From a virus, in the UHGV virus genome UHGV-0135234: DNA of 36,533 nucleotides. The stretch is one strand, 5' to 3'. The first letter of the stretch is position 1, and each line of letters begins with the position of its first letter. The notes below the pieces were generated by a model. It searched no databases, was not told the DNA's origin, and saw only the letters and a program-made list of their open reading frames with translations. Both the position numbers and the translations under genes were made by a program. Shown here piece after piece: positions 5,100-36,483 of this stretch.

Positions 5100-5915
5100 A
5101 TGAGCAGACATGCAACAGATTGGGCCTGGGAGACAGATCCAGGTAGCTCGTCATTAAAGCTCATACTGCTTTCGATGGCTGACAGAGCCGATGAATATAA
5201 CCTCTGCTATCCCAGCATAGAACGCCTCGTTAAAGACACTTGCCTGAATAAAAAAACCGTACAGGCCGGGCTTATATCGCTCATGAAAATGGGGCTTATT
5301 TCAGATACCGGAGAGAGAAAGGGAGCGACGAAAAGAGTGCGGGTTTTCTCTCTTAATATAACCAAAAACGGGAACATTAAAGGCAACCGGGAGGGGGGCA
5401 ATGAACCCGAAAACGGTAATGTTACCGAAAACGGGAATATACCCAAAAACGGGATGTTGAATGATCCCAAAAACGGGATGTTGAATGATCCCAAAAACGG
5501 GATCCAGAACCAGTCATATAACCAGTCATTTAACCAAGAGAGGGAGAGCAGGACAAAAAACGGGGATTCTGTGCATCATGACCCCAGCGCAAACAACGCC
5601 GTGATGAATAACTTTGTTCCTCCTGGTGGGCCAGGGCAATTAGGCAAATTTGTCATGCATGAACAATGGCAGCCATCAGATGACTTTCTTCGGAAAAGCT
5701 CATTGCAGGGGATCTACCTGGACAGTCTGCCAACGGCACAGGAACTTGCAGAGTTCAGAATTTACTGGATGGCTGAGGGTAAGGCATACCATCAGGCACA
5801 GTGGGAGCAGAAGCTGGCAAGGCGGCTGCAGATTAGCAGACAGAAGCAATCAACATTACCTGATAACAACGTTCCGCACTGGAACAGCCCTGAAGCATGG
5901 GAGGATTTCTTGTGA
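5100..5915 (+). CDS. replication initiator, lambda O-like (HTH N-domain, iteron-encoded linker)
   Basis: 271 aa; N-terminal winged-HTH-like region; central (K/E)NG repeats encoded by DNA iterons; directly precedes P-like gene. Confidence 0.7.
   Translation: MSRHATDWAWETDPGSSSLKLILLSMADRADEYNLCYPSIERLVKDTCLNKKTVQAGLISLMKMGLISDTGERKGATKRVRVFSLNITKNGNIKGNREGGNEPENGNVTENGNIPKNGMLNDPKNGMLNDPKNGIQNQSYNQSFNQERESRTKNGDSVHHDPSANNAVMNNFVPPGGPGQLGKFVMHEQWQPSDDFLRKSSLQGIYLDSLPTAQELAEFRIYWMAEGKAYHQAQWEQKLARRLQISRQKQSTLPDNNVPHWNSPEAWEDFL
5361..5565. repeat. origin-like iterons inside O-like gene (about 7 copies, core AAAACGGGA)
   Basis: Core at 5365, 5410 (variant), 5428, 5446, 5470, 5494, 5557; two perfect 24-bp copies cccaaaaacgggatgttgaatgat at 5442..5465 and 5466..5489. 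Confidence 0.65.
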
Positions 5916-6768: not shown

Positions 6769-6797
6769 TTGATTTCGTGTCTTATGTGGTTTTTAAT
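6769..6797 (+). promoter_or_regulatory. putative internal promoter for nin-like operon
   Basis: -35 TTGATT (6769..6774), 17-bp spacer, -10 TTTAAT (6792..6797), directly followed by operator. Confidence 0.4.
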
Positions 6798-6811
6798 TAC
6801 CTCAGAGGTAA
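6797..6811. promoter_or_regulatory. operator palindrome TTACC-N5-GGTAA overlapping SD of downstream gene
   Basis: ttacctcagaggtaa; ends 4 nt before ATG 6815. Confidence 0.55.
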
Positions 6812-6814
6812 ATC

Positions 6815-7159
6815 ATGAGAAAACAGATACAGGCTCTTGGTCGACTCAAAACAGGCCAGATGAACAAAACAGAATCTGCGTATTGCCAGCACCTTGAGCA
6901 GCGTAAACGTGCAGGGGAAATAGCCTGGTATCGATTCGAGGGTATCAAGCTGCGGTTAGCTGACAACACGTTCTATACGCCAGATTTCGCTGTGATGCTC
7001 GCCACCGGCGAGATGGAACTGCACGAAGTGAAAGGTTTCTGGACCGACGACGCCAGGGTGAAAACCAAAGTCGCCGCAGATCAGTATCCGTTCCGAATCA
7101 TCGGGGTAACGGTTAAGCCAAAGAAAGCAGGTGGTGGCTGGAAAATCGAAGAGTTCTGA
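6815..7159 (+). CDS. DUF1064-like PD-(D/E)XK nuclease-fold protein
   Basis: 114 aa; FYTPDF...ELHEVKG motif pattern. Confidence 0.6.
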   Translation: MRKQIQALGRLKTGQMNKTESAYCQHLEQRKRAGEIAWYRFEGIKLRLADNTFYTPDFAVMLATGEMELHEVKGFWTDDARVKTKVAADQYPFRIIGVTVKPKKAGGGWKIEEF

Positions 7160-7220
7160 ATCGACGATCTTTTTAGTTATCAATGTAATCAATAAGTTAT
7201 GTGGATAAGCGAGGGTAAAG

Positions 7221-18833: not shown

Positions 18834-21304
18834 TGGCTATCAGTTGGATCCAGCCCAGCTTTGCCGGTGGTGAGATTGGACCGTCGTTGTACGGTCGTAT
18901 CGACATGGCGAAGTACCAGGTGGCATTGCGCAAGTGCGATAACTTTATCGTGCGGCAGTATGGCGGCGTTGAGAATCGACCTGGTACGCGTTTTGTCGGT
19001 GCCGCCAAATACCCAAATCGGAAATGCCGCCTGATCCCGTTCCAGTTCTCGACGGTTCAGACCTATGCTCTGGAGTTCGGACACCAGTACATGCGCGTTA
19101 TCAAAGATGGTGCGTTGGTGCTGAACAGCAGCAATGTTATTTATGAAATTGCCACGCCATATACTGAAGCTGATCTGTTCCGAATTAAATTCACGCAAAG
19201 CGCCGACGTGCTTACGCTGGTTCACCCGGCATACCCGCCGAAAGAGTTGCGCCGATATGCTCATGACAACTGGCAACTGGTTGATGTGGTAACGAAGAAC
19301 GGGCCATTTGAAGATATCAATATTGACGAGTCAGTGACGGTTTATGCCAGCGCCAGCACCGGGACAATTACGTTAACGGCAAGCGCCTCTATTTTTGGCG
19401 CGGAGCAGGTAGGCAAATTGTTCTATCTGGAACAGCCTGCAGTGGATTCAGTGCCGGTATGGGAAACCAGTAAGAGTACGTCGATTGGCGATATTCGCCG
19501 TGCAGACAGTAACTACTATCGCGCCGTTACAGCAGGCAAAACAGGTACTTTGCGCCCTTCGCATACAGAAGGCACATCATGGGATGGCTGGGGCGGATCC
19601 GGTGATGATGATACTGGCATTGAGTGGGAATATCTGCACAGTGGTTTTGGCATTGCCCGTATCACTGCTGCAAATGGAACTACTGCAACTGCCGAGGTGA
19701 TTTCCTATATCCCTTCGCAGGTAGTTGGCGAGGATAATGCCAGCTATAAATGGGCTAAATATGCCTGGAACAGTGTTAATGGTTATCCTGGCACTGTTGT
19801 TTATTATCAACAACGTCTTTACTTCGCCGCATCGACTGCGTTCCCTCAGACTATCTGGGCCAGCCGTACCGGGGATTATAAGGATTTTGGCAAAAGCAAT
19901 CCTACGCAGGATGACGACAGAATTATCTACACCTATGCCGGGCGTCAGGTTAATGAGATCCGCCACCTGATTGATGTCGGTTCGCTGGTGGCACTGACTT
20001 CCGGAGGTGAGTACGTCATCACCGGCGACCAGAACAAAGTGTTAACCCCATCATCATTTGCATTCAGCTCTCAGGGATCAAATGGCTCTAGCAATGTCCC
20101 ACCAATTGCCGTGGCGAATATTGCTCTGTTCGTCCAGGAGAAAGGCAGTGTTGTCCGTGATCTGGCCTACTCATTCGATGTTGACGGCTATCAGGGGAAC
20201 GACCTGACCATCCTTGCCAATCATCTTTTTCAGAAGCACAGCATTGTTGACTGGTGCTTCTCTATTGTCCCTTACTCCAGCGCCTTCTGCATTCGTGATG
20301 ACGGTAAATTACTGGTGATGACCTATTTGCGTGATCAGCAGGTTTTTGCATGGGCACCACAATCCAGTACCGGAAAATATGAAAGCACATGCAGTATCAG
20401 CGAAGGAAATGAAGATGCGGTGTATTTCGTCGTTAACCGAACCGTTAACGGGCAAACAGTGAGATACATCGAGCGACTGTCCAGCCGTTTATTTACCAGC
20501 GATGAAGATGCTTTCTTTGTTGATTCTGGCCTTAGCTATGATGGAAGAAATACGTCTGACAGAACGATGACCATCACTGGTGGTTCTGGCGAATGGGATT
20601 ACCGCGCGGAATATACAATCAGTATTTCTGGTGGTGCGTACTTCACCAGTAGTGATGTCGGTGCGCAACTACAGTTCCCTTATACCGGAACTGATCCTGA
20701 TACTGGCGATGAAGTGTCAAAAGAATTACGTTGCGACATTATTTCTGTAACCAGCAACACCGCTGTAGTGGTTCGTGCTAACAGGAACGTCCCGCCATCC
20801 CTCAGGAATGTGGCCACCACGAACTGGCAGATGGCGCGCCGGGCATTTGGCGGCTTGTCTCATCTTGAAGGTCAGACCGTAAACATCCTCTCTGATGCGA
20901 ACGTGGAACCACAGAAAGTAGTTTCCGGAGGTGCCGTCACGCTGGAATCACCGGGGGCTGTAGTGCACATCGGCCTGCCAATAACTGCTGAATTCGAAAC
21001 ACTGGATATCAACATTAACGGACAGGAAACGCTGCTGGACAAAAAACAGGTGATCCCATCCGTTACTCTGGTTGTGAATGCCAGCCGCGGCATCTGGGCG
21101 ACTACGCCCGGCGGTAAATGGTACGAATATCCACAGCGTGAATTCGAGTTCTACGATGATCCTGTTGATGACGCTACCGGAAAAGTAGAAGTGAAACTGG
21201 ACAGTAACTGGGGCAAAAACGGACGTGTAAGAATCCGTCAGCTTGACCCGTTGCCGCTGTCTGTTCTTGCCGTTATTCCTCGTCTTACTGTTGGGGGATT
21301 CTGA
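18833..21304 (+). CDS. tail tube/nozzle protein (T7 gp12-like by size and synteny)
   Basis: 823 aa (T7 gp12 794 aa); ATGA-coupled to upstream gene. Confidence 0.6.
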   Translation: MAISWIQPSFAGGEIGPSLYGRIDMAKYQVALRKCDNFIVRQYGGVENRPGTRFVGAAKYPNRKCRLIPFQFSTVQTYALEFGHQYMRVIKDGALVLNSSNVIYEIATPYTEADLFRIKFTQSADVLTLVHPAYPPKELRRYAHDNWQLVDVVTKNGPFEDINIDESVTVYASASTGTITLTASASIFGAEQVGKLFYLEQPAVDSVPVWETSKSTSIGDIRRADSNYYRAVTAGKTGTLRPSHTEGTSWDGWGGSGDDDTGIEWEYLHSGFGIARITAANGTTATAEVISYIPSQVVGEDNASYKWAKYAWNSVNGYPGTVVYYQQRLYFAASTAFPQTIWASRTGDYKDFGKSNPTQDDDRIIYTYAGRQVNEIRHLIDVGSLVALTSGGEYVITGDQNKVLTPSSFAFSSQGSNGSSNVPPIAVANIALFVQEKGSVVRDLAYSFDVDGYQGNDLTILANHLFQKHSIVDWCFSIVPYSSAFCIRDDGKLLVMTYLRDQQVFAWAPQSSTGKYESTCSISEGNEDAVYFVVNRTVNGQTVRYIERLSSRLFTSDEDAFFVDSGLSYDGRNTSDRTMTITGGSGEWDYRAEYTISISGGAYFTSSDVGAQLQFPYTGTDPDTGDEVSKELRCDIISVTSNTAVVVRANRNVPPSLRNVATTNWQMARRAFGGLSHLEGQTVNILSDANVEPQKVVSGGAVTLESPGAVVHIGLPITAEFETLDININGQETLLDKKQVIPSVTLVVNASRGIWATTPGGKWYEYPQREFEFYDDPVDDATGKVEVKLDSNWGKNGRVRIRQLDPLPLSVLAVIPRLTVGGF

Positions 21305-21768
21305 TGATCGATGTTCAAATTATTCCCGCCACCGAAGAGCATCTTCAGATGATTTTGCCGGATGTTCGTCAGGCTGATATTGACGAACTGTATGCGGTAT
21401 CGCTGATGACTACCGAAGATGCGCTGCGTGTTGGTCTTCGCACTGCGACTATGGCCTGGTCAGGATTTGCGAACGGAGAACTGGTAACCATGTTTGGCGT
21501 ATCTCCGGCGTCAATGATCGGTGGCAATGGTACGCCCTGGCTGGTAGGAACCAGCCGTATTGAAAAATATCAGAAGACATTTCTGCGCCACTGCCGCCCT
21601 GTATTGCAGCAGATGCTGGCAGTTTATCCGCGCCTGGAAAACTACGTCGACGAGCGAAACCATGTTGCCAAAGCATGGCTGCACTGGCTTGGATTCAGGC
21701 TTGAAGAAGCCGCGCCTTATGGTGCTCTTGGTCTTAATTTCCACAGATTTCACATGGAGAGAAAATAA
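21304..21768 (+). CDS. internal virion protein (gp13 position)
   Basis: 154 aa; synteny only. Confidence 0.5.
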   Translation: MIDVQIIPATEEHLQMILPDVRQADIDELYAVSLMTTEDALRVGLRTATMAWSGFANGELVTMFGVSPASMIGGNGTPWLVGTSRIEKYQKTFLRHCRPVLQQMLAVYPRLENYVDERNHVAKAWLHWLGFRLEEAAPYGALGLNFHRFHMERK

Positions 21769-22313
21769 TGTGCGATCCGGTTATTGCTGGTGGCGCAATG
21801 CTCGCCATGAGTGGCATTCAGGCATACACCCAGTACCAACAGGGAAAGTATGCCTCGAAGGTTGCAGAAGCGAACGCAGATATAGCCACAGCTCAGGCAA
21901 ATGATGCAATAAACAGAGGTAACGCTGAAGCTGAGCAACGGCGCAGAGAGACCCGACAGCGGCTTGGTACACAGGCGGCGACAATGGGGGCTACCGGCGC
22001 TGATTTATCTACAGGTAACGCGCTGGATATATTTGGCGACACTGCCCAGTTTGGCGCTCTTGATTCTCTGACGACGGTGAATAACGCGCAACGCGAGGCT
22101 TACGGTTATCAGGTTCAGGCTGCCAACTATAAAGCAGAAGCCAGTTCAGCCCGTAAACAGGGGAATGTGGGAGCAGCAACAACATTGCTCACTGCGCCTC
22201 TGAAGGCATACGGTGCGTACCAGATGTTTGGTGGGACGTGGAGTCCGTTTACTCAAAGCACCCCTGCGCCAATCGGAGCAGCAGCAGGAACCAGATTACC
22301 CGGAGGATTATAA
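21768..22313 (+). CDS. internal virion protein (gp14 position)
   Basis: 181 aa; Ala/Gly/Gln-rich. Confidence 0.55.
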   Translation: MCDPVIAGGAMLAMSGIQAYTQYQQGKYASKVAEANADIATAQANDAINRGNAEAEQRRRETRQRLGTQAATMGATGADLSTGNALDIFGDTAQFGALDSLTTVNNAQREAYGYQVQAANYKAEASSARKQGNVGAATTLLTAPLKAYGAYQMFGGTWSPFTQSTPAPIGAAAGTRLPGGL

Positions 22314-24826
22314 TGCCAGTCGTACCAACAGTATCCGGACGTCAGGTTGAGAGCCGTGGAGTTCAGTCAGCAGGCTTGCAGACGTTTTCTCAGCCAGGTA
22401 TTGGTGATGCTTTTGTTCGGGCAGGGGCAGAGGCAATTGATGTTTTGGGGCAGGCAAAACAGCGTGCCAATATTGCCTTGGCTCAGGAGGCATCTCTTAA
22501 CCTCAGTCAGATAAGCAGTGATTTGCTGAATAATCCTGAAACAGGATTGCTTAACCTGAAAGGGAAAAATGCTATTGGAAAAGGCCATGAGTATACGCAG
22601 CAGTTTGATGCTCAGGTCGAACAATTGGCTATGTCGCTGCCGGATGAACAGGCTCGTAATGCTTTCATGCAGCAGGCGCAGCAGCAGCGCATTCAGTTCA
22701 CTACGCAGGCCGGGCGACACGAGATAGGGCAAATTAATGCCTACGAAGAAGGCCAGTTTCAGGCGACACTGCTGAACAATGGTAAAAATGCCGCAGCATT
22801 GTATGGCGACAACGCCGCATACGTATTGGCTAACAAACAAACTTTCCAGCAAATTGAGGAGTACGGTGTTGCACATGGCTGGAGCAACGAGCAAATCCAG
22901 GCCAAGAAAATCGAGTTTAAAGAGAAGGTTGCTGATGCTGCATTGTCCCAGTGGTCGGCAAACAATGCGACCGCATTCATCCAAAGTAATGGCGAGTTAA
23001 GTGATACTGCTGCTGGAGCTCGCCGTGCTGTAGCAGATAGTGACTCTTCCGAGCGTGCCCGTGGCATACGCAACAATAACCCAGGAAATCTCGAATACAG
23101 CAAAACTAATCCGTGGGTAGGCCAGACCGGTGATGATGGTCGATTTGCTAAATTCGAAACACCTGAACACGGGATTCGTGCATTAGGGCGGAACCTGATG
23201 TCGTATCAGAGGCAGGGTATTGATACCGTCAGCGAGATAATTAATCGCTGGGCACCGCCTGCTGATAAAAATGACACTATGTCGTATATCAAAGCAGTGT
23301 GCGAACAACTTGGCGTTTCTGCTGATGAGCCTCTCGATGCATCTAATCCTGATACCCTGAAGGCGCTTTGTGCAGCCATTATCCATCATGAGAACGGTAG
23401 CCAGCCATACAGTGATCAGCAGTTAACTGCTGGTGTCAGTGCAGCACTTGGTTTATCAACAATTCCAACCAACACCAAACGCTATACCGGTAATGCAGCA
23501 TTCGATGCGGCATCTCCTGAGGCGCAGGCAAGTTTTATGCGACAGGCGGATCAACTGCGTCGGCAGCAGCAGGCTGAATATAAAACGATGATTGACAGCC
23601 AGGTTCGCGATGCGACAGCTGCGTATATGCGTGGCGTTGAATTTCCTAACCCACCTGGTGAGGCTGATTTTATTGCAGCTTATGGAGTAAGAGAAGGAAA
23701 CCTGCGATATACCGAGTTCAGAAATACGCAAATCGCCGGACAGTATATAGGCTCTTTCCGCAACATGCCGACAAGCAGCATTACAGCATATGTTGAGCAA
23801 TTACGCCCGGATACTGGTGAGACAGGGGAGGGTTATGCGGCACGAGCCGCTCTTTATGACAACGTTGTGTCGGCTGCAAGTCAGGTGATAAAGCAGCGAC
23901 AGGCTGATCCTGTACAGTTCTCTCTTGCCGCCGGACAGACAAAGCCTATCGACATGAGCAATAAGGATAACTTTGGACAGAGCGTTGCCTTGCGTGCTGC
24001 TCAGGTCAGTGACCTTGCTAAGTCATATGGCACTCCACTGACGTTCTTTTCCAAAGACGAGGCCAATCAGATCGGTGTTTTCTTTCGTGATGCGCCCGTT
24101 TCCCAACAGGCAGCATATCTCGATACCATCAGGCAGAGCACTGGTGGTGGGCAGGTGTATATGTCAGCACTACAGCAGATCAGTGCCAACGCTCCATCTG
24201 CTGCCGTTGCCGGGATACTGATGGATAAGCCAGGTGGTATTTTGGCAGAAAAAAACTGGTTTAATCCGGATGTTTCCGTGTCTCCTGAAACCGCTGCGCA
24301 GACAATTCTTGCTGGAGCGGCGGCTCGTAAAGGTACTGATGATGCGAAAGGTATTCCGATGCCTAAAGATGCTGATCTTCGCCTTGAGTTTTCTGACATG
24401 GTGAAGGATGCATTTGCTGGTGACGCTCAGGGGGCATCAATGGCATACGAGATCGCAAAGGATTATTACGCTGGTGTGATGGCGAAAAAAGGCGTGGTAT
24501 CAGGCGAAATTGACAATGATGTCTGGAAACAGGCTGTTAACGTAGCTACAGGTGGCGTGCATGACTATAACGGAATGGGGAATGTCCTTTTGCCGTGGGG
24601 AATGTCTGCAGAGCAATTCGATAAGCAGGTTAATCAGGCTTGGAATGAACAAGTTGTCGGCTCCGGGATAAAAACACCGCCTGGTCAGTATGGTTTGCAA
24701 AGTTACGGCGATAGTCAGTACCTGGTGAAACTTGGTACTGGTTATCTGCTGAAAGATGATGGTTCTCCCGTTGTTCTTAATCTGACACAGAAACGTCAGA
24801 GATTCTCCGGAGATATTCCGCAATGA
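22313..24826 (+). CDS. large internal virion/ejection protein
   Basis: ORF 22238..24826; ATG at 22313 with GGAGG SD overlapping upstream stop; 837 aa; conserved block GIRNNNPGNLEY...WVGQ...RFAKF...GIRALGRNLMSYQRQG. Confidence 0.65.
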   Translation: MPVVPTVSGRQVESRGVQSAGLQTFSQPGIGDAFVRAGAEAIDVLGQAKQRANIALAQEASLNLSQISSDLLNNPETGLLNLKGKNAIGKGHEYTQQFDAQVEQLAMSLPDEQARNAFMQQAQQQRIQFTTQAGRHEIGQINAYEEGQFQATLLNNGKNAAALYGDNAAYVLANKQTFQQIEEYGVAHGWSNEQIQAKKIEFKEKVADAALSQWSANNATAFIQSNGELSDTAAGARRAVADSDSSERARGIRNNNPGNLEYSKTNPWVGQTGDDGRFAKFETPEHGIRALGRNLMSYQRQGIDTVSEIINRWAPPADKNDTMSYIKAVCEQLGVSADEPLDASNPDTLKALCAAIIHHENGSQPYSDQQLTAGVSAALGLSTIPTNTKRYTGNAAFDAASPEAQASFMRQADQLRRQQQAEYKTMIDSQVRDATAAYMRGVEFPNPPGEADFIAAYGVREGNLRYTEFRNTQIAGQYIGSFRNMPTSSITAYVEQLRPDTGETGEGYAARAALYDNVVSAASQVIKQRQADPVQFSLAAGQTKPIDMSNKDNFGQSVALRAAQVSDLAKSYGTPLTFFSKDEANQIGVFFRDAPVSQQAAYLDTIRQSTGGGQVYMSALQQISANAPSAAVAGILMDKPGGILAEKNWFNPDVSVSPETAAQTILAGAAARKGTDDAKGIPMPKDADLRLEFSDMVKDAFAGDAQGASMAYEIAKDYYAGVMAKKGVVSGEIDNDVWKQAVNVATGGVHDYNGMGNVLLPWGMSAEQFDKQVNQAWNEQVVGSGIKTPPGQYGLQSYGDSQYLVKLGTGYLLKDDGSPVVLNLTQKRQRFSGDIPQ

Positions 24827-26625
24827 GTTACTTTGGCCTTAATCCAGTAAACCAGAATCAGCAGCTTGACGAAGCAGCATCAAATCCAGCTGGCTTTAAC
24901 AGCGATGTTGGTTTTTTCGACAATGCTGTAGGAGCGGCATTGTCTGGTTTGTACTCCGGGCTGGTGGCAAAGCCAGATCAGTTGCTATGGGCAGGGATGG
25001 ATAAAATCGTATCCCCGATTGCTCAGTTTGTTAACGAAAACACCTCGCTCAATGATACTTCAGTTTCATACATTGCCGAGCAGAGAAAACTAGCAGAGCA
25101 GCAGGTTAAGCGGCTGACGCCTGATGCCGCGACAACTGGAACCGCTGGGCAGGTTCTTTATGGGTTGTTCGATATGGGCGGGCAGGCTGTTGTTGGTACA
25201 ACGCTCGGTGGTCCGGTCGGAGGTGCTGCGGCGGTAACTTCGCTACAGGGTTTTTCTGAGTTTGAACGGCTGACAGCACAGGGTGTTGATTTCAGGACGG
25301 CGCAGGAAGCGGGATTAGTGCAGGGCATTACTGCTGGTGCCGGAACGCTGATCCCTATAAGCCTCGGGTTACGTGCTGGTGGTGCGCTGGCGGAAGGTGT
25401 GGCGGCTCAGCTTGCACGGACGGGTGAAAGTTCAGTGCGACGCGCCGCAGCAACAGCAGTACGTGCAACGCCAGATATTGCCTATGCCGCAGGTACAAAT
25501 ATTGCGTTCGGTATGGCACAGCGTGGGCTTACTGCAAAAACGCTTCGTGATGGTGGCTATAGCGAAATGGCTAATCAGTATGATGTGTTGGATCGACAGG
25601 CAATTGCTATTGATGCTGTTCTTGGAGTGGCGTTTGGTGGTGTCGGCAGATTTATTAACTCTCGCGGCGAGTCTACAAGCGCACCAAATTTTTCACCAGT
25701 TGATGTCGATGCTGCACTGGCGGCGAATGCCGCTCATCATGCTGAAATTGATATTGCTCCCGGTGTGCCGATCAACGTGCTTTCGCGTAATTCGCACATT
25801 CAGGCTCTGCGAAAAGCCATGTCTGATGTTAGCCAGGGGAGACCTGTAGACGTTGCCAGCATTGTTGAGTCTGCATCTTTCAGTGAAATTCCTGGGCGCA
25901 AGAGTCTGCTTTCTCAGGCAGTTAATGAGGCTCTGTCATCTGTAGATGATGGAGTAACGGCGCGCGCTATAGAAAATCGGTTGCTTGAAGAACAGGCCGC
26001 GCAGCTTTTGCCGCGTGGCGATAGACAGGTTTACCAGTCTGAAATCGCTAATAGCCAACGAATTATTGAAAATCTCACTGAACAGCGCGCACAAATTCTT
26101 GCAGAAGAGCCAACCGGTAGCGGTAAAGCTTTGTCTCGTGCTCGATCAGATAAACAGGCCAGACTTCGCGATATTGATCAACGAATCCGGCAGGCACAAG
26201 AACGCCTGGAGTTTTCCCGTAACGCGTTGGCACCGCACGAGCCTGGCGGTCAGTTTTTTGAAGCTCGAGCAGAACTGGCACGACGACAGCAGGCAGAAAG
26301 TGAACTTAATGCTCAGGCTGTTTCATTCTATAAAACAGCAGAGGTCAGGACGCCAGACGAAGTAGCTCCTTTTGAGCCCGGTAAGATATTGCAACAGACA
26401 GAACAAAAAATGATGGCAGATCCGGCAGGAGATATTGATCTGCGTATAGCTGAAGACTCGCTGCTTGAATCTCCGGACATGATAATCACCGTGCTGGATG
26501 ATGATGGTAATCCACAATCGCGCAGTGCGCGTGAAGTACTGGATGAAGCGAACAGGGAAAGTGAGCAGGCAATACAGGATTCCAGCCTGTTTGATGTTGC
26601 TGTGGCGTGTTTCTTGAGAGGTTAA
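24823..26625 (+). CDS. large internal virion/ejection protein
   Basis: 600 aa; Gly/Ala-rich hydrophobic segments; ATGA-coupled. Confidence 0.65.
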   Translation: MSYFGLNPVNQNQQLDEAASNPAGFNSDVGFFDNAVGAALSGLYSGLVAKPDQLLWAGMDKIVSPIAQFVNENTSLNDTSVSYIAEQRKLAEQQVKRLTPDAATTGTAGQVLYGLFDMGGQAVVGTTLGGPVGGAAAVTSLQGFSEFERLTAQGVDFRTAQEAGLVQGITAGAGTLIPISLGLRAGGALAEGVAAQLARTGESSVRRAAATAVRATPDIAYAAGTNIAFGMAQRGLTAKTLRDGGYSEMANQYDVLDRQAIAIDAVLGVAFGGVGRFINSRGESTSAPNFSPVDVDAALAANAAHHAEIDIAPGVPINVLSRNSHIQALRKAMSDVSQGRPVDVASIVESASFSEIPGRKSLLSQAVNEALSSVDDGVTARAIENRLLEEQAAQLLPRGDRQVYQSEIANSQRIIENLTEQRAQILAEEPTGSGKALSRARSDKQARLRDIDQRIRQAQERLEFSRNALAPHEPGGQFFEARAELARRQQAESELNAQAVSFYKTAEVRTPDEVAPFEPGKILQQTEQKMMADPAGDIDLRIAEDSLLESPDMIITVLDDDGNPQSRSAREVLDEANRESEQAIQDSSLFDVAVACFLRG

Positions 26626-26630
26626 ATTAA

Positions 26631-29105
26631 ATGAGACAGGAATGTATACAAGCGGTCCAGCAGGCGGCGCAGCGCACGTTAACGGCGCGAGAAATACAGA
26701 ACATTGAAGACCGCATTTATCGAAATATGCGCTCCATTGCTCGTGATGACCCGATGTCGTGGCGACAACTTTCCGAATCAGAACGGTTGTATCGTGCAGC
26801 ACAATTGGCATCTGAAGAATTACAGCGAGAAGCGGCATTAAAGAAACGTCGTGTGGCCCTCACTATAGCCGCACGTCAGAGATTGGATAAATTTATCAAT
26901 AGCTATCAAGGGGCTGATGGGAAACTTGGCGCTCTTAACCGTACTATTGCTTTTAATGCAGACGGTAAATCGAATTTCCTCTCTGTTGAATCCAGAACAA
27001 AAGCCACCCGTGATTATGCATTGAGTCAATTGCAGGAGGCATTCGAAGCAGTTGATCCTCGCTTTTTTGGTCTGTTTGAAGATGAAGCGGGCGTACGTGA
27101 CCTGGTATATGAAATGCGGGGGCAAAATACTGGCAATGCTAAAGCAAGAAAAGGTGCTAAGGCGTGGAGAGAAGTTACAGAGCTGCTGCGCCGCCGGTTT
27201 AATGATGCTGGTGGGGACATTGGCTATCTCGAAAACTGGGGGATCCCTCAACATCATTCTATGGAAAAGGTTGGGGCGGTATCAAAGGATAAGTGGGTTA
27301 GCGATGTTATAGGTAAGCTGGATCGCAAATATTATACCCGAGCCGATGGACAACTGATGAACGATGCCGAGTTGTCTGAATTTCTTGGAGAGGCTTATAA
27401 CACGATCGCTACTGGTGGGCTGAATAAGCTTACTGATACCGGAATGCGAATTTCCGGCGCACGTGCTAACCGTGGTAATGCATCACGACAGATACATTTC
27501 AAAGATGCAGATTCCTATCTGCAATATCAGCAACTTTATGGCGATCGCTCTCTATGGGAAATCATGGTCGGTCACCTGGAAGGTATCAGTAAAGATATTG
27601 CGCTGGTGGAAACATATGGCCCAAACCCCGATCATGTTTTCCGCTCCCTTCTTGATCAGGTTAAGGCAGAAACGGCAACAGCTAACCCGAGTAAAACCGG
27701 TAGCGTCGAGCGTCTGGCGAACAAAACAGAGAACTTGTACAACTTTATTTCCGGAAAAACACAGCCTGTAGCGAATCCGCACATCGCGCGATGGTCTGAC
27801 AATATCCGCAACTGGCTGGTTGCCAGCAGACTCGGATCCGCGTTGCTGTCATCGTTCTCTGATCTTGGAACCATGTATCTGTCTGCGAAGGTTACCAACC
27901 TTCCAATGAACCAGTTATTTCGCAACCAGCTTGAAGCTATGGACCCAACGAACCGTACAGAACTTGCGCGGGCGCGCCGCGCTGGCCTGGCGATGGAATC
28001 TCTACTTGGCAGCGTTAACCGCTGGGCGATGGATAATATGGGGCCGTCTGTGTCTCGTTGGGCGGCAACGGCGGTAATGCGTGCCAGTGGGCTTACAGCA
28101 TGGTCAGATGCGCACAAGCGCGCCTATGGCGTAACCATGATGGGAAGCCTGGGAGAAGTAGTGTCACGGACACCAGACCTTCGTAGCCTCGATGACTCTG
28201 ATTTTCGTATCCTGAAAAGCAAAGGGATTACTGACACAGACTGGAGCGTATGGAAGCTGGCGCAACAGGAGGACTGGGGGAACGGTAATAATACGATGCT
28301 GACACCGGAAAGCATTATGCGTATCCCTGATTCAGCAGTTAAACATCTTGGTGAGCCTGAACGCGTGAAATTTGAGGCAATGCGTAAACTGCTCGGTGCC
28401 GTAACTGAAGAAGTTGATATGGCTGTTATTACACCGGGCGCACGTGAACAGATGTTCGTAGGGTCTGGTCTTCAGCGTGGAACATGGAAAGGTGAATTAA
28501 CGAGAAGTGTTTTCCTGTTTAAATCGTTCCCTATCTCGGTAGTTATGCGTCACTGGCATAGAGCTATGGGGATGCCGTCTGCTGGTGGGCGTGCGGCATA
28601 TATAGCAACGTTTTTAGCAAGCACAACCATGCTTGGTGCTCTTTCCATGCAGATTACTGATCTTATTAATGGGAGAAATCCAAAAGAAATGACCGGTGAC
28701 AACATGGTTAAATTCTGGATAAATGCATTTTTAAAAGGTGGTGGGGCAGGGTTGTATGGTGATTTTCTTTTCTCTGACCACACCAGGTACGGGAGCGGCG
28801 CACTAGCGTCGATGCTTGGCCCGGTAGCTGGTCTGGTTGATGACGTAGTGAAGATTGCTCAGGGCATACCGTTAAATGCTGTGGAAGGGAAGAATGAGCA
28901 GACTGGTGGTGATCTGGTTAAGCTTGGGAAAGGTTTGATGCCTGGTGCGAATCTCTGGTACTTGAAGGCGGCTCTCGATCACATGATCTTTAATCAGATG
29001 CAGGAGTATTTTTCACCAGGCTATTTGCGTAAAATGGAGCAACGTTCGAAGAAAGAGTTTAACCAGACATACTGGTGGCGACCTCAGGATGTCACTCCGC
29101 AATAA
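26631..29105 (+). CDS. large internal virion/ejection protein
   Basis: 824 aa; last large protein of virion block. Confidence 0.65.
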   Translation: MRQECIQAVQQAAQRTLTAREIQNIEDRIYRNMRSIARDDPMSWRQLSESERLYRAAQLASEELQREAALKKRRVALTIAARQRLDKFINSYQGADGKLGALNRTIAFNADGKSNFLSVESRTKATRDYALSQLQEAFEAVDPRFFGLFEDEAGVRDLVYEMRGQNTGNAKARKGAKAWREVTELLRRRFNDAGGDIGYLENWGIPQHHSMEKVGAVSKDKWVSDVIGKLDRKYYTRADGQLMNDAELSEFLGEAYNTIATGGLNKLTDTGMRISGARANRGNASRQIHFKDADSYLQYQQLYGDRSLWEIMVGHLEGISKDIALVETYGPNPDHVFRSLLDQVKAETATANPSKTGSVERLANKTENLYNFISGKTQPVANPHIARWSDNIRNWLVASRLGSALLSSFSDLGTMYLSAKVTNLPMNQLFRNQLEAMDPTNRTELARARRAGLAMESLLGSVNRWAMDNMGPSVSRWAATAVMRASGLTAWSDAHKRAYGVTMMGSLGEVVSRTPDLRSLDDSDFRILKSKGITDTDWSVWKLAQQEDWGNGNNTMLTPESIMRIPDSAVKHLGEPERVKFEAMRKLLGAVTEEVDMAVITPGAREQMFVGSGLQRGTWKGELTRSVFLFKSFPISVVMRHWHRAMGMPSAGGRAAYIATFLASTTMLGALSMQITDLINGRNPKEMTGDNMVKFWINAFLKGGGAGLYGDFLFSDHTRYGSGALASMLGPVAGLVDDVVKIAQGIPLNAVEGKNEQTGGDLVKLGKGLMPGANLWYLKAALDHMIFNQMQEYFSPGYLRKMEQRSKKEFNQTYWWRPQDVTPQ

Positions 29106-29114
29106 GGAACAACA

Positions 29115-29528
29115 ATGAAGGAATTATTGCTGTTATCGGTATTTTTGATATCCGCTTGCTCGACATCCTATGATGTTTATGACGGTGTTGATAAGGCATA
29201 TTGCGACAAAGTTAAAATGGATTTTTCTCTTGCCAAGACGGCGAAGGATAGTTGTATTGATCACTACGTCAAGACTTATACCAAGCCAGCCTCATCGGCA
29301 TCTGATATTGCTGAAGGTGCTGTGTTTGAGTGTAACAAGGTGATATCCATCGCAGCGAGTTCTTCATACGATGCTGCTGTATGTGCAATGGCTGAAAGAA
29401 ACGGCATGTCAGTGCAAAAAATTAATAGCATGATAAGCAGTAATGACGAAGCCAAAATAAGAACTGATATCAGCTCGGTGAAAAAAGATGCCATGAACAG
29501 AGTTGTAAAATATCAGTCATCTTTATAA
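29115..29528 (+). CDS. lipoprotein (candidate superinfection-exclusion moron)
   Basis: 137 aa; signal peptide MKELLLLSVFLISAC with lipobox ISAC, Ser at +2; AT-rich; followed by palindrome and terminator. Confidence 0.6.
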   Translation: MKELLLLSVFLISACSTSYDVYDGVDKAYCDKVKMDFSLAKTAKDSCIDHYVKTYTKPASSASDIAEGAVFECNKVISIAASSSYDAAVCAMAERNGMSVQKINSMISSNDEAKIRTDISSVKKDAMNRVVKYQSSL

Positions 29529-29531
29529 GTC

Positions 29532-29543: not shown

Positions 29544-29544
29544 A

Positions 29545-29568
29545 GGCCGCTTTCGCGGCCTTGTTTTT
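29545..29568 (+). terminator. rho-independent terminator
   Basis: ggccgc-tttc-gcggcc followed by TTGTTTTT. Confidence 0.65.
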
Positions 29569-29728
29569 AACGAATGCCACCGCCACCCGGGCGGGAATCC
29601 GCAGAACGCCCACCGCAGCGGGAGCCGTCAGCAGCAGTGTCGCTGTCGTGCTGACAACGACCGGCAAAGGCCTGAGTTGAAGCTACCAGAGACAACAAAA
29701 CGAACAGTGCAGCAAATGCTTTTTTCAT
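29567..29728 (-). CDS. small secreted peptide (Sec signal peptide, 2 Cys, Gly-rich C-terminus)
   Basis: ORF 29567..29800; ATG at 29728 gives 53 aa MKKAFAALFVLLSLVASTQAFA|GRCQHDSDTAADGSRCGGRSADSRPGGGGIR; weak SD. Confidence 0.35.
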   Translation of the reverse strand: MKKAFAALFVLLSLVASTQAFAGRCQHDSDTAADGSRCGGRSADSRPGGGGIR

Positions 29729-29800
29729 TGTGAAATTTCCATCTATAAGCCACCTCAATGTGGCGTCAATGAGTGTAGCACTGACTTTTGTTTCGCCCAC

Positions 29801-29821
29801 AAAAAAGCCCGCAGCGCGGGC
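29801..29821 (-). terminator. rho-independent terminator after cargo gene B
   Basis: Minus strand gcccgc-gct-gcgggc followed by TTTTTT. Confidence 0.6.
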
Positions 29822-30261
29822 TATTCTTCTTCATCATTAAAAAGCGGATTGTTGTTTCCATCTGATGAAAGGAAAGGTATGTGTTCTCTTGAAAATCCAA
29901 CAATGACAATTTCATTATCATTTTTTGCATAATGAATGCATTCATTAGAATGCCTTCCGCCAGGGTTGAAATTTAAGTTAATGGTATAATTCTTAAATGT
30001 GTTTGGATACCATGTTGGCCCACAATGATAATGCCAATAATTCTCTTGCTCATAATTGTCTGAGCCGGGAATTTTATCATGGTTATCATCAACCCACGAG
30101 GGCTTGTTTTTTCCAACAAGCGCCCTTCCATTGGCAACATCCTCTAAAAAACTTTGTATGATTTTTATTTCATCATCAGTAAGGAAAGGTCCGTCTACAG
30201 CGAAAGGGGTGTTGCTTTCCCCATGTAGAAAACTATTAGATATTCTAATGTTAAACTTCAA
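29821..30261 (-). CDS. AT-rich cargo protein of unknown function (gene B)
   Basis: ORF 29821..30402 has no internal Met; CAGGAG SD + 6 nt + TTG at 30261 gives 146 aa (MKFNIRISNSFLHGESNTPFAVDGPFLTDDEIKIIQ...NYWHYHCGPTWYP...FNDEEE); upstream 47 codons of the long ORF use rare codons and overlap gene A. Start uncertain. Confidence 0.4.
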   Translation of the reverse strand: MKFNIRISNSFLHGESNTPFAVDGPFLTDDEIKIIQSFLEDVANGRALVGKNKPSWVDDNHDKIPGSDNYEQENYWHYHCGPTWYPNTFKNYTINLNFNPGGRHSNECIHYAKNDNEIVIVGFSREHIPFLSSDGNNNPLFNDEEE

Positions 30262-30281
30262 GGAAAACTCCTGATGTGCTT

Positions 30282-30449
30282 CTATTTGGAGCGAAATGCC
30301 GCCTTGAAGTCGCTGAAAGATGTTCCTGTCTGGTAAACCATATCCTTGTCGCGCTCTTTGCTTGCGCGGCCAAGCATAACTTTTCCAATGACATCCCAGC
30401 ATTGCTTGGCTTGTTCATTGTGCTGAGTACGATTTTTCAACGCTGTCAT
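30282..30449 (-). CDS. small protein (gene A), first gene of operator-controlled cargo operon
   Basis: 55 aa MTALKNRTQHNEQAKQCWDVIGKVMLGRASKERDKDMVYQTGTSFSDFKAAFRSK; AGGAGG SD 6 nt before ATG; host-like codon usage; not in ORF track (<60 aa). Confidence 0.4.
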   Translation of the reverse strand: MTALKNRTQHNEQAKQCWDVIGKVMLGRASKERDKDMVYQTGTSFSDFKAAFRSK

Positions 30450-32000: not shown

Positions 32001-34190
32001 ATGACGGTCTCAACCGAAGTTGACCACAACGAATACACCGGTAACGGCGTTACGACATCATTTCCGTATACCTTCCGTATTTTCAAAAAAACCGACCTGG
32101 TTGTTCAGGTGTCTGACCTGAACGGGAACGTAACAGAATTGGTTCTGGATACCGGTTATAAGGTAACTGGAGCGGGCACTTATAGTGGCGGTGAAGTGGT
32201 TCTCCCGTCGCCGCTTGCTGCTGGCTGGCGAATTACGATAGAGCGTGTGCTTGATGTGGTGCAGGAGACTGATCTTCGCAATCAGGGAAAATTTTTCCCC
32301 GAAGTTCATGAAGATGCATTTGACTACCTGACGATGCTGATCCAGCGATGTTTTGGGTGGTTCAGACGTGCATTGATGAAACCATCTTTGCTTGCAAAAT
32401 ATTACGATGCAAAGCAAAACAAAATTTCTAACCTTGCAGATCCATCATTTGAGCAGGACGCTGTAAATAATCGCTCAATGCGTAATTATGTCGATGCTGC
32501 AATCGCCGGGGTTGTTGGTGGTTTTGGTTGGTTTATACCGTCAGGAAGCGGGGCAAGACAACGAACATTTCAAAGCAAAATGAGGGATATAATTTCTCCT
32601 TGTGATTACGAAGATAATATTTTTATGATTAAGGAGTTGATATCCAAAGGCAAAAATGCCGCTGTTTTTAACTCATATTATACTTTTGTTATTACTGTTG
32701 GCGAATGGGGTGATTTCCCTACACTCAAAGATGCAATCATTGCAGCCCAGTCAATGAGACCTATGTGGGATGGTGGTAATGCTTTCTGCGAAATAAGAAT
32801 TAAGACCGGGCATATTATCAACTATCAAATTGAATTCAGTTCAGGTGTTGATTTGTCTTGGATTAAAATAACATCAGAAGACTCAGTGGTTTTCTCTGAC
32901 ACTCGTTTGTTTACTAAAATCGTTAGAACGTATTACGAATACAAGTATTTATTTTACATTTGCGATGCAGCAAAAAGTCCTGTATTTGCTATTCAGATCG
33001 AAGAAAATAGAGATGATAGCGATGTTTGTGCATTTATTGTAACTCAAAAAGCTGAACTTAATTTCTATCCGTATTCAGGTGCTCGAAAGTTCTACGTTGG
33101 AATTCATGGTAGTTTTGGTGCAAAAATTAGTGCATATCATACCGGATGTGCTCCTGATGAGGAAAGTGTTGCTGCATATATGCCAGAAGGGTATTACGTA
33201 TGTGATTTTTCTTATAGCAGATACTCTTCCCTGCAACTGGTAAATAATGTCAAGGCATCAATGCCTGTAAGCAAGTTTGAACGGTGCACAGAGAGTACGG
33301 TTGCGTCAGTTAATTGTATTTATAATGTTAAAGCAGATTTTCAGGGGTCAAGTGCAAGCTATTGTTATATAGGATGGAATGTAAGAGATGGTTCAAATGT
33401 TAATATACGCGACCATAAAACTATACATTGCTCATATCGTGGATTAACCTGCATTCATACAGCATATGTTGATGCAAGACGACATGACGTTGAAGAAAGT
33501 GATGCAGAAACAAGTGGTAAAGTCCTTGAACCAAATATTGAAAAAGGTTTTTATGGATGTGCACTTGGTGTGCGTATTGATGGTGCGGGTTGCGTTGATG
33601 TTGCTGGTAATGATATGCGCAATTGTGGAACAGCCGTTAATGCAGACACTGGTGCTGTTATTTCAGGAAAGGCTGTAGATATCTCAGGGGCTGAGCTGGG
33701 ATTTGATTGCCATGCAGGAGCATCTGTTAATTTTCCAAGGCTATGGGGTACAGATATAAAAAAATTAATGCACCTCCAAGATGGTGTAAGGTTTAACTCT
33801 AATATTTGTCATGTATTTGGTGCAAATCCCACAAAAGATATTAGATGGATTGATGTAGAGAGATCTGAAGCTTCTTTTATGAATGCAACGCTGGATGCAG
33901 ATTCAGGATTTATTGCCGACTGTGGTAGTAGGATAACCATTGAAGGAAGTAAAGTTAAAAACCAAACAATAAGAAGTTTTTTTGGATCATATGTGGCTAT
34001 AAATAATACTGTTGCTGACAGAACTTATTCAGATATAGCCGATGTTCCGCAGTTGACTATTAGTGGAGGATCTTTTATTTCTGCTACAGGATATTCTAAT
34101 TCTGACTCCAGCCCTCTGAGGTTGAGCACAACACGAAATACACTTGGCGTTGGAGGAGCCATATTTTCAACCAATGGGGAAGTTTCATGA
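32001..34190 (+). CDS. tailspike/tail fiber with T7 gp17-like N-terminal adaptor and AT-rich C-terminal receptor-binding domain
   Basis: 729 aa; N-terminal about 130 aa matches podovirus tail-fibre N-domain pattern; composition becomes AT-rich from about 32450. Confidence 0.8.
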   Translation: MTVSTEVDHNEYTGNGVTTSFPYTFRIFKKTDLVVQVSDLNGNVTELVLDTGYKVTGAGTYSGGEVVLPSPLAAGWRITIERVLDVVQETDLRNQGKFFPEVHEDAFDYLTMLIQRCFGWFRRALMKPSLLAKYYDAKQNKISNLADPSFEQDAVNNRSMRNYVDAAIAGVVGGFGWFIPSGSGARQRTFQSKMRDIISPCDYEDNIFMIKELISKGKNAAVFNSYYTFVITVGEWGDFPTLKDAIIAAQSMRPMWDGGNAFCEIRIKTGHIINYQIEFSSGVDLSWIKITSEDSVVFSDTRLFTKIVRTYYEYKYLFYICDAAKSPVFAIQIEENRDDSDVCAFIVTQKAELNFYPYSGARKFYVGIHGSFGAKISAYHTGCAPDEESVAAYMPEGYYVCDFSYSRYSSLQLVNNVKASMPVSKFERCTESTVASVNCIYNVKADFQGSSASYCYIGWNVRDGSNVNIRDHKTIHCSYRGLTCIHTAYVDARRHDVEESDAETSGKVLEPNIEKGFYGCALGVRIDGAGCVDVAGNDMRNCGTAVNADTGAVISGKAVDISGAELGFDCHAGASVNFPRLWGTDIKKLMHLQDGVRFNSNICHVFGANPTKDIRWIDVERSEASFMNATLDADSGFIADCGSRITIEGSKVKNQTIRSFFGSYVAINNTVADRTYSDIADVPQLTISGGSFISATGYSNSDSSPLRLSTTRNTLGVGGAIFSTNGEVS

Positions 34191-34483
34191 TTAAGAGCAT
34201 TGATGTCACTCCATTTCTTCACTCGCTTTGCGCTTTTGTGGCTCAGGTACTGGTTGGTATTTTTACCGGAAACTGGGCTTACGGTGCGATAGCCGGTTGT
34301 ACGTTCTTCATTGCGCGTGAACACACCCAGGCAGAATATCGCTGGATAGAAAAGTTTGGGAAAGGGAAACGTATCAACATGCCGTGGTGGGGAGGTTTTG
34401 ATCCACGCGTGTGGGATGTGGGAAGTCTGTTGGATTTTGCTGTTCCTGTTGTTTTTTGTTTTTGTGTTTATTTCTCTATTTGA
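34187..34483 (+). CDS. small membrane protein (2 predicted TM segments)
   Basis: 98 aa; ATGA-coupled to tailspike stop; hydrophobic segments near both ends. Confidence 0.45.
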   Translation: MIKSIDVTPFLHSLCAFVAQVLVGIFTGNWAYGAIAGCTFFIAREHTQAEYRWIEKFGKGKRINMPWWGGFDPRVWDVGSLLDFAVPVVFCFCVYFSI

Positions 34484-35385: not shown

Positions 35386-36004
35386 ACAATTCCAGCGAGC
35401 TGCTGGTATCAGCGAGGCACTGGCCGCACGCTGGTTCTCGCATATAACTTCTGCGATGAAAGAGTTTGGTATCAGCAAACCAGAAGATCAGGCTATGTTT
35501 ATTGCTCAGGTCGGGCATGAGTCTGGAGGCTTCACCCGGTTGCAGGAGAATTTCAACTACAGCGTCAGCGGACTGGCTAACTTTGTTCGGGCTGGGCGTC
35601 TCACTCAGGGACAGGCCAACGCATTGGGGCGACGTGCAGGCGAACCACCATTGCCACTTGAGCGCCAGAGAGCGATTGCCAATCTGGTGTACAGCAAACG
35701 CATGGGGAACAATGCCCCTGGTGATGGCTGGAACTACCGTGGGCGCGGGCTTATCCAGGTTACCGGTTTGAATAACTATCGTGACTGTGGAAACGGTCTT
35801 AAGGTTGACCTGCTGGAGAGTCCTGAACTGCTGGCGCAGGACGAATACGCGGCTCGTAGCGCGGCGTGGTTCTTTGCCAGCAAAGGATGCATGAAGTATA
35901 CCGGCGATATTGCACGTGTAACTCTGATTATCAATGGTGGCCGGAACGGCATCGACGACCGGCGCGCGCGATACATCAATGCCAGTAAGGTGCTGGCGGT
36001 ATGA
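35375..36004 (+). CDS. endolysin, glycoside hydrolase family 19 (chitinase-like)
   Basis: 209 aa; motifs [28 protein letters not shown] typical of GH19 phage endolysins. Confidence 0.85.
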
Positions 36005-36483
36005 TCTTGGCATTCGTAAAAGCATACCGGAAACAGTTGATTATCATGGCGGTGCTTGCTGTTCTGGTCATATCAGGAGTTGTTGCCTGGAGTGTACACG
36101 GCAGTCGTCAGTACGACGCCGGGTATGCGCAGGCGAAAGAAGACCGCAAAACCGAAGATGAGAGAATTCGTCAGCACTACGAACAGGAGAAAGCGATCAA
36201 TGAACGTGAAGCGCAGCAGAGGATCGACCAGGCGCGCAATGATGCTCTTGATGCTGCCGCTCGCGCTGGCAGGTTGCAGCAACAGCTCGTTGCCATCCGT
36301 GAGCAGCTCAGGCAGTATAACGCCATTGTCGGCGCTGGGACGTCAGCCGCAGACACCGGAGTTTTGCTTGCCGACGTGCTCAGTAAATCTCTCGAGAGAA
36401 ACAGACAACTGGCAGAGTATGCTGACCGGGCAGCCGAAGCCGGAAGAGTCTGTGAAAAACAGTACGACACCCTGACCAGATAG
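36001..36483 (+). CDS. Rz: i-spanin (Rz-like)
   Basis: 160 aa; N-terminal TM ([18 protein letters not shown]), coiled-coil periplasmic domain; ATGA-coupled to endolysin. Confidence 0.75.
36200..36475 (+). CDS. Rz1: o-spanin (Rz1-like) embedded in +1 frame of Rz
   Basis: Start ATG 36200 gives lipoprotein signal [26 protein letters not shown] (lipobox LAGC); Pro/Ser-rich mature part; start uncertain (alt ATG 36239). Confidence 0.55.
   Translation: MNVKRSRGSTRRAMMLLMLPLALAGCSNSSLPSVSSSGSITPLSALGRQPQTPEFCLPTCSVNLSRETDNWQSMLTGQPKPEESVKNSTTP

Follow-up and report, generated by a model that had tools for sequence, protein, structure and literature searches.

In phage P22, the exclusion gene sieA is located between gene 16, the last of the ejection genes, and gene 9, which encodes the tailspike. 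It is carried by about one in three P22-like phages, among which three barely related types occur, and its product blocks the gp20/gp16 conduit; its expression is upregulated on induction. Gene 15 of HK97, a moron located beside the tape-measure gene, blocks DNA entry without touching the receptor. The llp gene of T5 adjoins the receptor-binding gene, and Llp binds to FhuA on the periplasmic side, and the cor gene of T1 is found at the end of the tail genes. The placements of P22 sieA, HK97 gene 15, and T5 llp indicate that exclusion genes tend to adjoin the delivery genes that they counter. Here, we report an analysis of UHGV-0135234, a viral genome of 36,533 nt (hereafter the window, meaning this whole stretch of DNA), centered on the gene at positions 29115-29528, which encodes a predicted lipoprotein of 137 aa and follows the last ejection gene of a prophage. 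This gene occupies a slot in which unrelated cassettes for envelope proteins alternate, and we tentatively propose that its product may act in superinfection exclusion at the level of the cell envelope.

Among the described systems, SieA offers a positional match: in both cases, the gene comes behind the last gene for an ejection protein and is followed by an antirepressor region and then the tailspike gene. The likeness extends to the presence of the gene in only some relatives, to the several unrelated sequence types that share the position, and to an envelope protein as product. However, SieA, a multi-pass inner-membrane protein, has a dedicated promoter, PsieA, whereas the protein studied here is predicted to be a helical domain held on a lipid anchor, most plausibly at the outer membrane, and exclusion has been demonstrated for SieA, whereas for the lipoprotein it is a candidate function proposed by analogy. 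Membership in the SieA family was rejected on the basis that there is no sequence similarity, the motif FxRYPxEAxxFNK is absent, and there are no transmembrane helices. The locus also resembles that of HK97 gp15 in being an AT-shifted insertion in the late virion operon, beside a DNA-delivery gene and with an envelope product, although gp15 is a small inner-membrane protein related to YebO and has its own promoter in the prophage. With Llp and Cor, the lipoprotein would share a periplasm-facing position at the outer membrane and a gene near virion or host-recognition genes, and with T5 Llp in particular a mature part that is constrained by disulfides.

A polymorphic slot behind the ejection genes

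On sequence grounds, the window is a Uetakevirus (phiV10/epsilon15-like) prophage. The flanks of the lipoprotein open reading frame (ORF), but not the ORF itself, are covered by DNA matches to phiv142-3, HEMP4, phiV10, the O157 typing phages, and the Salmonella epsilon15-like phages SPN1S and 65FD. The features that define the gene and its cassette are as follows.

26631..29105, plus strand: gene for an 824-aa virion protein, homologue of phiV10p20 and last gene of the ejection block (PHROG 684; phiV10 annotation)
29104..29108, plus strand: Shine-Dalgarno sequence AAGGA, overlapping the upstream stop codon, at the left edge of the swappable cassette
29115..29528, plus strand: lipoprotein gene, ATG start, stop codon included, 137-aa precursor matching PHROG 8691 from end to end
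29115..29159, plus strand: signal peptide and lipobox, with residues 1-14 being MKELLLLSVFLISA and Cys15 predicted to be lipidated
29160..29525, plus strand: predicted mature periplasmic domain of ~122 aa, all-helical in the AlphaFold2 (AF2) model
29544..29569, plus strand: intrinsic terminator, hairpin AGGCCGC-TTTC-GCGGCCT (29544..29561) followed by TGTTTTT

The start codon of the lipoprotein gene is 9 nt past the stop codon of the 824-aa virion protein gene, and both are in the same reading frame. It is clear that 29115..29528 is a real gene and not a chance frame, since comparison with homologues of 95-96% identity from more distant phages revealed 18-31 synonymous and 5-8 nonsynonymous differences, corresponding to a ratio of nonsynonymous to synonymous divergence (dN/dS) of 0.05-0.06, and since the lipobox and four cysteines are kept down to 26% identity. 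The gene is thus under strong purifying selection. The exact 137-aa protein is found on at least 1000 public contigs, where it is named only 'hypothetical protein' or 'Lipoprotein', and PHROG 8691 carries the annotation "unknown function".

A survey of related IMG/VR loci with the C-terminus of the 824-aa protein recovered 80 loci, 74 of which could be classified and 6 of which could not. The content of the slot in the 74 loci was distributed as follows.

137-aa lipoprotein: 21 loci
57-aa two-transmembrane-helix protein together with a 98-aa multi-pass protein (PHROG 3075): 30 loci
46-aa two-transmembrane-helix protein of phiV10 (PHROG 7892): 15 loci
unrelated 126-aa lipoprotein (PHROG 3716) alone: 2 loci
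126-aa lipoprotein preceded by a small membrane protein: 6 loci

The slot corresponds to 29107..29531 of the window when compared with loci L042-L119. Its alternatives all encode envelope proteins, are served by the same ribosome-binding site and terminator throughout, and in four cases replace the lipoprotein in phages whose flanks are 96-99% identical; none of the five cassettes has a known function. The flanks are also common among complete Escherichia coli genomes, being carried by 547 of 5,426 (~10%), with the lipoprotein cassette present in 22. The 126-aa lipoprotein (lipobox LAGC or LVGC, Gln at +2; L067:~4972-5352, L086:~6790-7206, and L122:5995-6405) is found in podophages of Klebsiella, Pseudomonas, Burkholderia, and Rhizobium as well. 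The last of these coordinates is from the temperate Pseudomonas phage YA3, where the gene lies between that for the last large internal protein and the tail-fiber gene and is annotated 'putative outer membrane protein assembly factor'.

The boundaries of the cassette are sharp. In alignments with phiV10, phiv142-3, and the E. coli prophage DSM103246, similarity is lost right after TAAGGA and returns at CGTGACATGTCAC, at ~29531. The terminator (hairpin folding energy of -17.7 kcal/mol, z = -2.4) is just past this right edge, is annotated as a terminator in phiV10, and is common to all cassette types. Because it is located in a flank shared with relatives that carry other cassettes, it ends the whole late operon and is not private to the lipoprotein gene. 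On the plus strand between 28800 and 29114, no sigma-70-like site scoring at least 9/12 was found, the only nearby plus-strand match being inside the ORF, and the intergenic gap is only 9 nt. Given this and the shared ribosome-binding site, the gene is transcribed at least with the late operon, and a weak promoter inside the upstream gene might still contribute.

The original prediction had described an AT-rich moron for an outer-membrane-type lipoprotein, positioned at the end of the virion core genes and before the tailspike, with a terminator of its own. Its description of the gene was accurate apart from the terminator, and the position also needed correcting: the gene does follow the last virion/ejection gene, but four minus-strand genes stand between it and the tailspike gene. 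The base composition is indeed deviant, with a G+C content (GC) of 39.4% for the ORF, compared with 49.1% for the whole window and 48.9% for the upstream gene, which places the ORF within the lowest 4% of 414-nt windows. As a moron in the sense of Juhala and Hendrix, the gene qualifies by this deviant composition and by its presence in some close relatives and absence from others, and it is a horizontally acquired, replaceable cassette with sharp boundaries; as for a terminator, one follows the gene but belongs to the flank common to all cassette types. No promoter of its own was found in the region scanned, and the shared ribosome-binding site joins it to the late operon, so the term applies only in part.

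The divergence of the cassette differs from that of its surroundings. In the same pairs of phages used for the selection analysis, synonymous divergence (dS) was 0.25-0.49 for the lipoprotein gene, compared with more than 1.7 (saturated) for the adjacent 824-aa gene, and the lipoproteins were 95-96% identical, the 824-aa proteins 91-92%, and the products of the two preceding genes 76-83%. As the dS of the cassette is far below that of the flanking gene, the cassette has moved between phages more recently than the flanks diverged. The last ~280 nt of the 824-aa gene retain 97-99% identity between cassette types and are likely to serve as a recombination anchor. The choice of cassette did not follow that of other variable modules. 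Co-variation with the tailspike was rejected, as only 3 of the 21 loci with the lipoprotein cassette share the receptor-binding domain of the window and the loci have two N-terminal adaptor types. Co-variation with a variable patch in the 824-aa protein was rejected as well, because loci of the Enterobacter/Citrobacter type carry the same lipoprotein with a different patch, and because of three type-B loci with the window-type protein.

The lipoprotein and its relatives

The N-terminus of the protein, MKELLLLSVFLISAC, satisfies the PROSITE-type lipoprotein pattern, with Lys2 in the n-region, a hydrophobic core, the lipobox LISA/C15, and Ser at +2; accordingly, the residues MKELLLLSVFLISA followed by Cys15 conform to the lipobox consensus [LVI][ASTVI][GAS]C with the cysteine at position 15-35. 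The same pattern was matched by all nine further family members checked, and both the 137-aa frame and its LISAC lipobox, as originally predicted, were thus confirmed. Sorting to the outer membrane is predicted because Ser16-Thr17-Ser18 after Cys15 contain no Asp, and the position +2, which must not be Asp under the +2 rule, is Ser in the window protein and Ser, Thr, or Gly in every homologue. The proposal of an outer-membrane-type lipoprotein is therefore supported by the predicted sorting signal.

Beyond the signal peptide, the protein appears to be soluble, with no transmembrane segment, a grand average of hydropathy (GRAVY) of -0.28, and a single Pro among the 123 residues of the mature part. 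The AF2 model (predicted local distance difference test score, pLDDT, of 85) consists of helices 24-55, 62-72, 74-96, 100-106, 109-115, and 119-136, which form a confident helical bundle dominated by a long hairpin that packs helix 24-55 against helices 62-96. Two cysteine pairs, Cys30/Cys47 and Cys73/Cys90 (CX16C…CX16C), are invariant across the family. Because the pairs are equally spaced (17 residues) on both arms of the hairpin, two disulfides, C47-C73 and C30-C90, probably staple it in an antiparallel arrangement; this pairing follows from helix geometry and was not read off the model. Conserved cysteines in an exported protein fit with a disulfide-bonded periplasmic domain.

The family is tiny, amounting to ~6 clusters among 1.84 billion representatives. 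A word-indexed search returned 17 clusters, from E. coli, Enterobacter, Citrobacter, and Cedecea, all with proteins of 137 aa except for one 78-aa fragment, and when the 1.84 billion representatives were searched exhaustively with a profile, just four further, more distant proteins (137-142 aa) were gained. Down to 26% identity, all members keep the lipobox, Ser, Thr, or Gly at +2, and four cysteines at fixed spacing, and the invariant columns of the family alignment are M1, C15, D26, C30, C47, C73, C90, and S99. The cluster that includes the window protein (P0038) has one 121-aa member deposited as Enterococcus faecalis (WP_433580853.1), which, as a Gram-negative lipoprotein, is most likely the result of assembly contamination. 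No model in Pfam, NCBIfam, or PADLOC matched the lipoprotein above threshold, and sub-threshold matches to linker histone and CC_3452 were dismissed as noise. A tblastn search of the protein against 50,697 phage records yielded no match, and all known copies of the gene are from prophages or IMG/VR contigs. Among genome contigs, a profile search with the alignment of the close family detected no relative, and one with the Providencia/Morganella member of the family (P0020) detected one Providencia genome. In all of these searches, no sequence or fold relative of known function was found for the lipoprotein, which represents a new, narrowly distributed family of outer-membrane-type lipoproteins, so classed by their sorting signal, in a sieA-like slot.

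In four divergent podophage lineages, counting that of the window, the gene is placed after the last ejection gene. A Cedecea prophage encodes a 55% identical lipoprotein 3 nt past its last ejection gene, the 848-aa product of which is only 24% identical; another epsilon15-like phage (L013/L014) has a 27% identical member in the same region, after one extra gene; and in a further lineage (L008), a 44% identical member comes after the C-terminal end of an internal virion protein resembling T7 gp16 and ahead of an antirepressor gene. The Providencia/Morganella member, named 'lipoprotein' at NCBI, is not found in podophages. In three genomes it is located in islands with integrase, AlpA, DUF3987, and YfjJ genes, where its neighbors include a DruE-like helicase, GajB, and type I or type III restriction-modification genes, and in Providencia sp. 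PAZ2 it is located in a lambdoid prophage, between the antiterminator Q gene and the holin gene, on the opposite strand and near AbiTii. It is clear from these contexts that the family is a portable single-gene accessory that recurs after ejection genes and among defense genes.

The Morganellaceae homologues (L009-L011, 8001-8420; L041, 10001-10420) are followed by a conserved hairpin 7 nt past the stop codon. The defense cargo beside them changes, comprising DruE-like and NERD/UvrD genes, Gabija, SIR2, or type I/III restriction-modification genes, and one genome has the homologue in a lambdoid prophage, where AbiTii and a Ser/Thr kinase/PP2C pair are nearby. Scans for promoters near the stand-alone homologues gave results no better than those for shuffled sequence.

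Proposed envelope-level exclusion and competing explanations

We propose, with a probability of roughly 0.45, that the function of the lipoprotein is envelope-level superinfection exclusion, in which it would act as an outer-membrane-tethered periplasmic factor that is positionally analogous to P22 SieA. The protein would be exported by the Sec pathway, lipidated at Cys15, and sorted by the Lol system to the inner leaflet of the outer membrane, with its disulfide-stapled helical domain facing the periplasm, and superinfecting phages would be excluded at the step of crossing the envelope. Two routes can be envisaged. In the one that we slightly favor, the lipoprotein would obstruct the trans-envelope conduit built by podophage ejection proteins, and in the other an outer-membrane protein would be jammed from below, in the way that FhuA is by T5 Llp. 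Since the gene is transcribed at least with the late operon, the protein would also act in lytic growth. In favor of exclusion are the conserved lipoprotein signals and cysteines, the nature of the slot alternatives, all of them envelope proteins, the sieA-like position, the placement of homologues both beside ejection genes and in defense islands, and the mobility and strong constraint of the cassette. Several observations weigh on the other side. Classic exclusion would require expression in the repressed prophage, and no promoter was found for the lipoprotein between 28800 and its start codon. Homology to exclusion or defense proteins was not detected in Pfam, PHROGs, NCBIfam, or PADLOC, and a literature search turned up no paper on Uetakevirus lipoproteins or citing WP_000661385. 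The homologues in islands and in the lambdoid prophage show that the protein does not target the ejection machinery of its carrier, the defense-island neighborhood amounts to guilt by association only, and there is no known phenotype for the lipoprotein.

The idea of exclusion in the original prediction was a reasonable one, although if it holds, it would be in a different form, as the protein is probably not a receptor-specific blocker. The resemblance to Cor and Llp that had been suggested did not hold up: in hhalign comparisons, the family profile (A3) aligned with T1 Cor over only 20 columns and with Llp over only 17, in both cases within the signal peptide, and no PHROG annotated as Cor was matched. 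The mature parts of Cor and Llp, at ~57-62 aa, are about half the size of the 122-123 aa found here, which are predicted to be helical. A strict blocker of the Llp/Cor type, directed at one outer-membrane receptor used by the carrier phage, would accord with a gene near virion genes, as is the case for cor and llp. However, Llp (T5) and Cor (T1, phi80, N15, and HK022) belong to FhuA-dependent siphophages, whereas the carriers here are podophages that recognize O-antigen. We know of no protein receptor for these O-antigen-recognizing phages. Moreover, the gene follows an ejection gene and is not paired with a receptor-binding gene in the manner of llp, and the absence of linkage between cassette and tailspike type, with 3 of 21 loci sharing the receptor-binding domain, argues against a blocker tuned to the phage's own receptor, so we regard this explanation as quite improbable. 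The likelihoods that we attach to the various explanations are not strictly additive, because a strict Llp-type blocker overlaps with one route of the exclusion that we propose.

The late transcription of the gene could also be taken to mean that it serves the lytic cycle alone, with no role in the lysogen, either by a late change to the envelope that would spare progeny from losing their DNA on debris and vesicles or by tuning lysis. The first of these is a second role that has been proposed for T5 Llp. Co-transcription with the late genes, the shared ribosome-binding site and terminator, the spacing of 9 nt from the upstream stop codon, and the equally tight packing in Cedecea (3 nt) and other phages are all in keeping with such a helper, as is the induction response of P22 sieA, which is likewise upregulated. 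Even so, a complete Rz/Rz1 pair and holins are encoded elsewhere in the phage, the gene is dispensable in that close relatives have it replaced, the stand-alone island homologues and the opposite-strand lambdoid copy could not be driven by late phage transcription, and O-antigen, which these phages use as their primary receptor, cannot be masked by a protein that faces the periplasm; taken together, these points make the explanation unlikely. A spanin can be set aside as well. Rz1 o-spanins are phage-encoded outer-membrane lipoproteins too, but the protein studied here is not Pro-rich, is encoded neither within nor next to an i-spanin gene, and can be replaced by non-lipoproteins, and the phage already has its own lysis lipoprotein, Rz1, in a lysis cassette 6.5 kb away, so the ORF is not a spanin.

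Alternatively, the protein may have nothing to do with phage defense and be a lysogenic-conversion or host-fitness factor, conferring serum resistance in the manner of lambda Bor, or envelope robustness, adhesion, or stress tolerance. A prophage accessory slot that encodes a lipoprotein of the outer membrane would suit such a role, as would the strong purifying selection, the range of carriers, which include pathogenic and commensal isolates from pigs, chickens, and humans, and the portability of the gene among prophages, islands, and the lambdoid Q-holin moron slot. The last of these slots classically holds conversion genes. On the other hand, searches revealed no similarity to Bor, TraT, Lom, or any other characterized family, with neither the Bor model nor those of PADLOC matched, and the podophage copies are joined to the late operon without a visible promoter, which would be a poor design for a trait of the lysogen. 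The island neighbors are defense systems, and the other cassettes of the slot encode very small membrane proteins like those known from exclusion systems, so that a host-fitness role seems rather unlikely. Least probable by far is that the protein is not exported at all and is a cytoplasmic assembly or ejection accessory of the neighboring virion protein, its hydrophobic N-terminus being incidental. The gene directly follows the last ejection gene and shares its reading frame, with synteny in four lineages, as would be expected of such an accessory, yet the lipobox, the Ser, Thr, or Gly at +2, and the four cysteines are kept while the rest of the protein diverges to 26% identity, close relatives do without the gene, and homologues occur with no virion genes nearby.

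Returning to envelope-level exclusion, a broader and more doubtful extension of this proposal is possible, in which the family would be a previously unrecognized one of helical lipoproteins, tethered to the outer membrane and stapled by disulfides, that act from the periplasm to block delivery of phage DNA, perhaps by preventing assembly of the podophage ejection-protein conduit beneath the outer membrane. This would constitute a new exclusion mechanism complementing inner-membrane SieA, and the family would also have been recruited as a stand-alone defense gene in Morganellaceae defense islands and lambdoid prophages.

Surrounding genes and implications

The remaining features of the region are as follows.

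21304..26625, plus strand: internal-virion/ejection genes encoding proteins of 154 aa (phrog_308), 181 aa (phrog_418), 862 aa, and 600 aa
29567..31823, minus strand: four-gene block between the cassette and the tailspike gene, encoding a 55-aa secreted peptide, a 193-aa low-GC ORF, a Bro-N antirepressor, and a 91-aa ORF
32001..34190, plus strand: tailspike gene, 729 aa (PHROG 5662)
36001..36483, plus strand: Rz-like i-spanin gene with an embedded Rz1 o-spanin at ~36200..36475 in the +1 frame (lipobox LAGC, Pro-rich)

In the ejection block, the 181-aa phrog_418 protein is T7 gp14-like in relatives and the 862-aa protein has a transglycosylase domain; in a related locus (L005), the Pfam models T7_gp14 and SLT match genes syntenic to this block. 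The 824-aa protein that ends it contains a mosaic patch at 28401..28820 (aa 591-730), with a core nucleotide identity of 65-67% between flanks of 97-99% and a dS of 0.77-2.8, compared with 0.08-0.17 in the N-terminal 590 codons. The patch spans hydrophobic, transmembrane-like segments and recalls the C-terminal regions of P22 gp16 and gp20, where mutations that escape SieA map.

The minus-strand block after the cassette resembles the immI/ant region located behind sieA in P22. Its 55-aa ORF (29567..29734, minus strand) has a cleavable-looking signal peptide (…STQAFA/GRC…) and a Gly/Arg-rich mature part with two cysteines, converges on the same terminator as the lipoprotein gene, and matches PHROG 14503, which belongs to the moron category and is annotated 'membrane associated protein'; many relatives have it, though not all, and phiV10 lacks it. 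The 193-aa ORF (29821..30402, minus strand; 38.7% GC; PHROG 5954, of unknown function) is found in 4 of 26 lipoprotein-carrying loci, is followed by a bidirectional-looking hairpin at 29806..29822, and is probably another accessory insertion. The tailspike gene, ~2.5 kb from the lipoprotein gene, is followed by holins, a GH19 endolysin, and Rz with its embedded Rz1. Its C-terminal receptor-binding part (32601..34190) has a GC of 37.8%, compared with 46% for the N-terminal adaptor, and is common to only 3 of 21 otherwise near-identical loci, a pattern typical of a module swap. A 98-aa multi-pass membrane protein (34187..34483, plus strand; PHROG 1443, of unknown function) is encoded in overlap with the tailspike stop codon, and the O-antigen acyltransferase that follows the tailspike gene in phiV10 and the Cedecea prophage is not present in the window.

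To our knowledge, envelope-acting exclusion proteins are among the least cataloged of anti-phage functions, being small, diverse, and absent from defense-system databases. If the lipoprotein does exclude phages, it would be an outer-membrane/periplasmic counterpart to P22 SieA and would provide a handle on how podophage ejection proteins cross the periplasm. The slot itself is predictable, with at least five unrelated envelope-protein cassettes alternating in it, and could then be mined for similar factors. As a prophage with this slot is present in ~10% of complete E. coli genomes, the cassettes could affect phage typing, phage therapy, and the use of reporter phages such as phiV10. If exclusion of this kind proves true, temperate podophages would have a general hot spot for exclusion genes in the slot that follows their last ejection gene.

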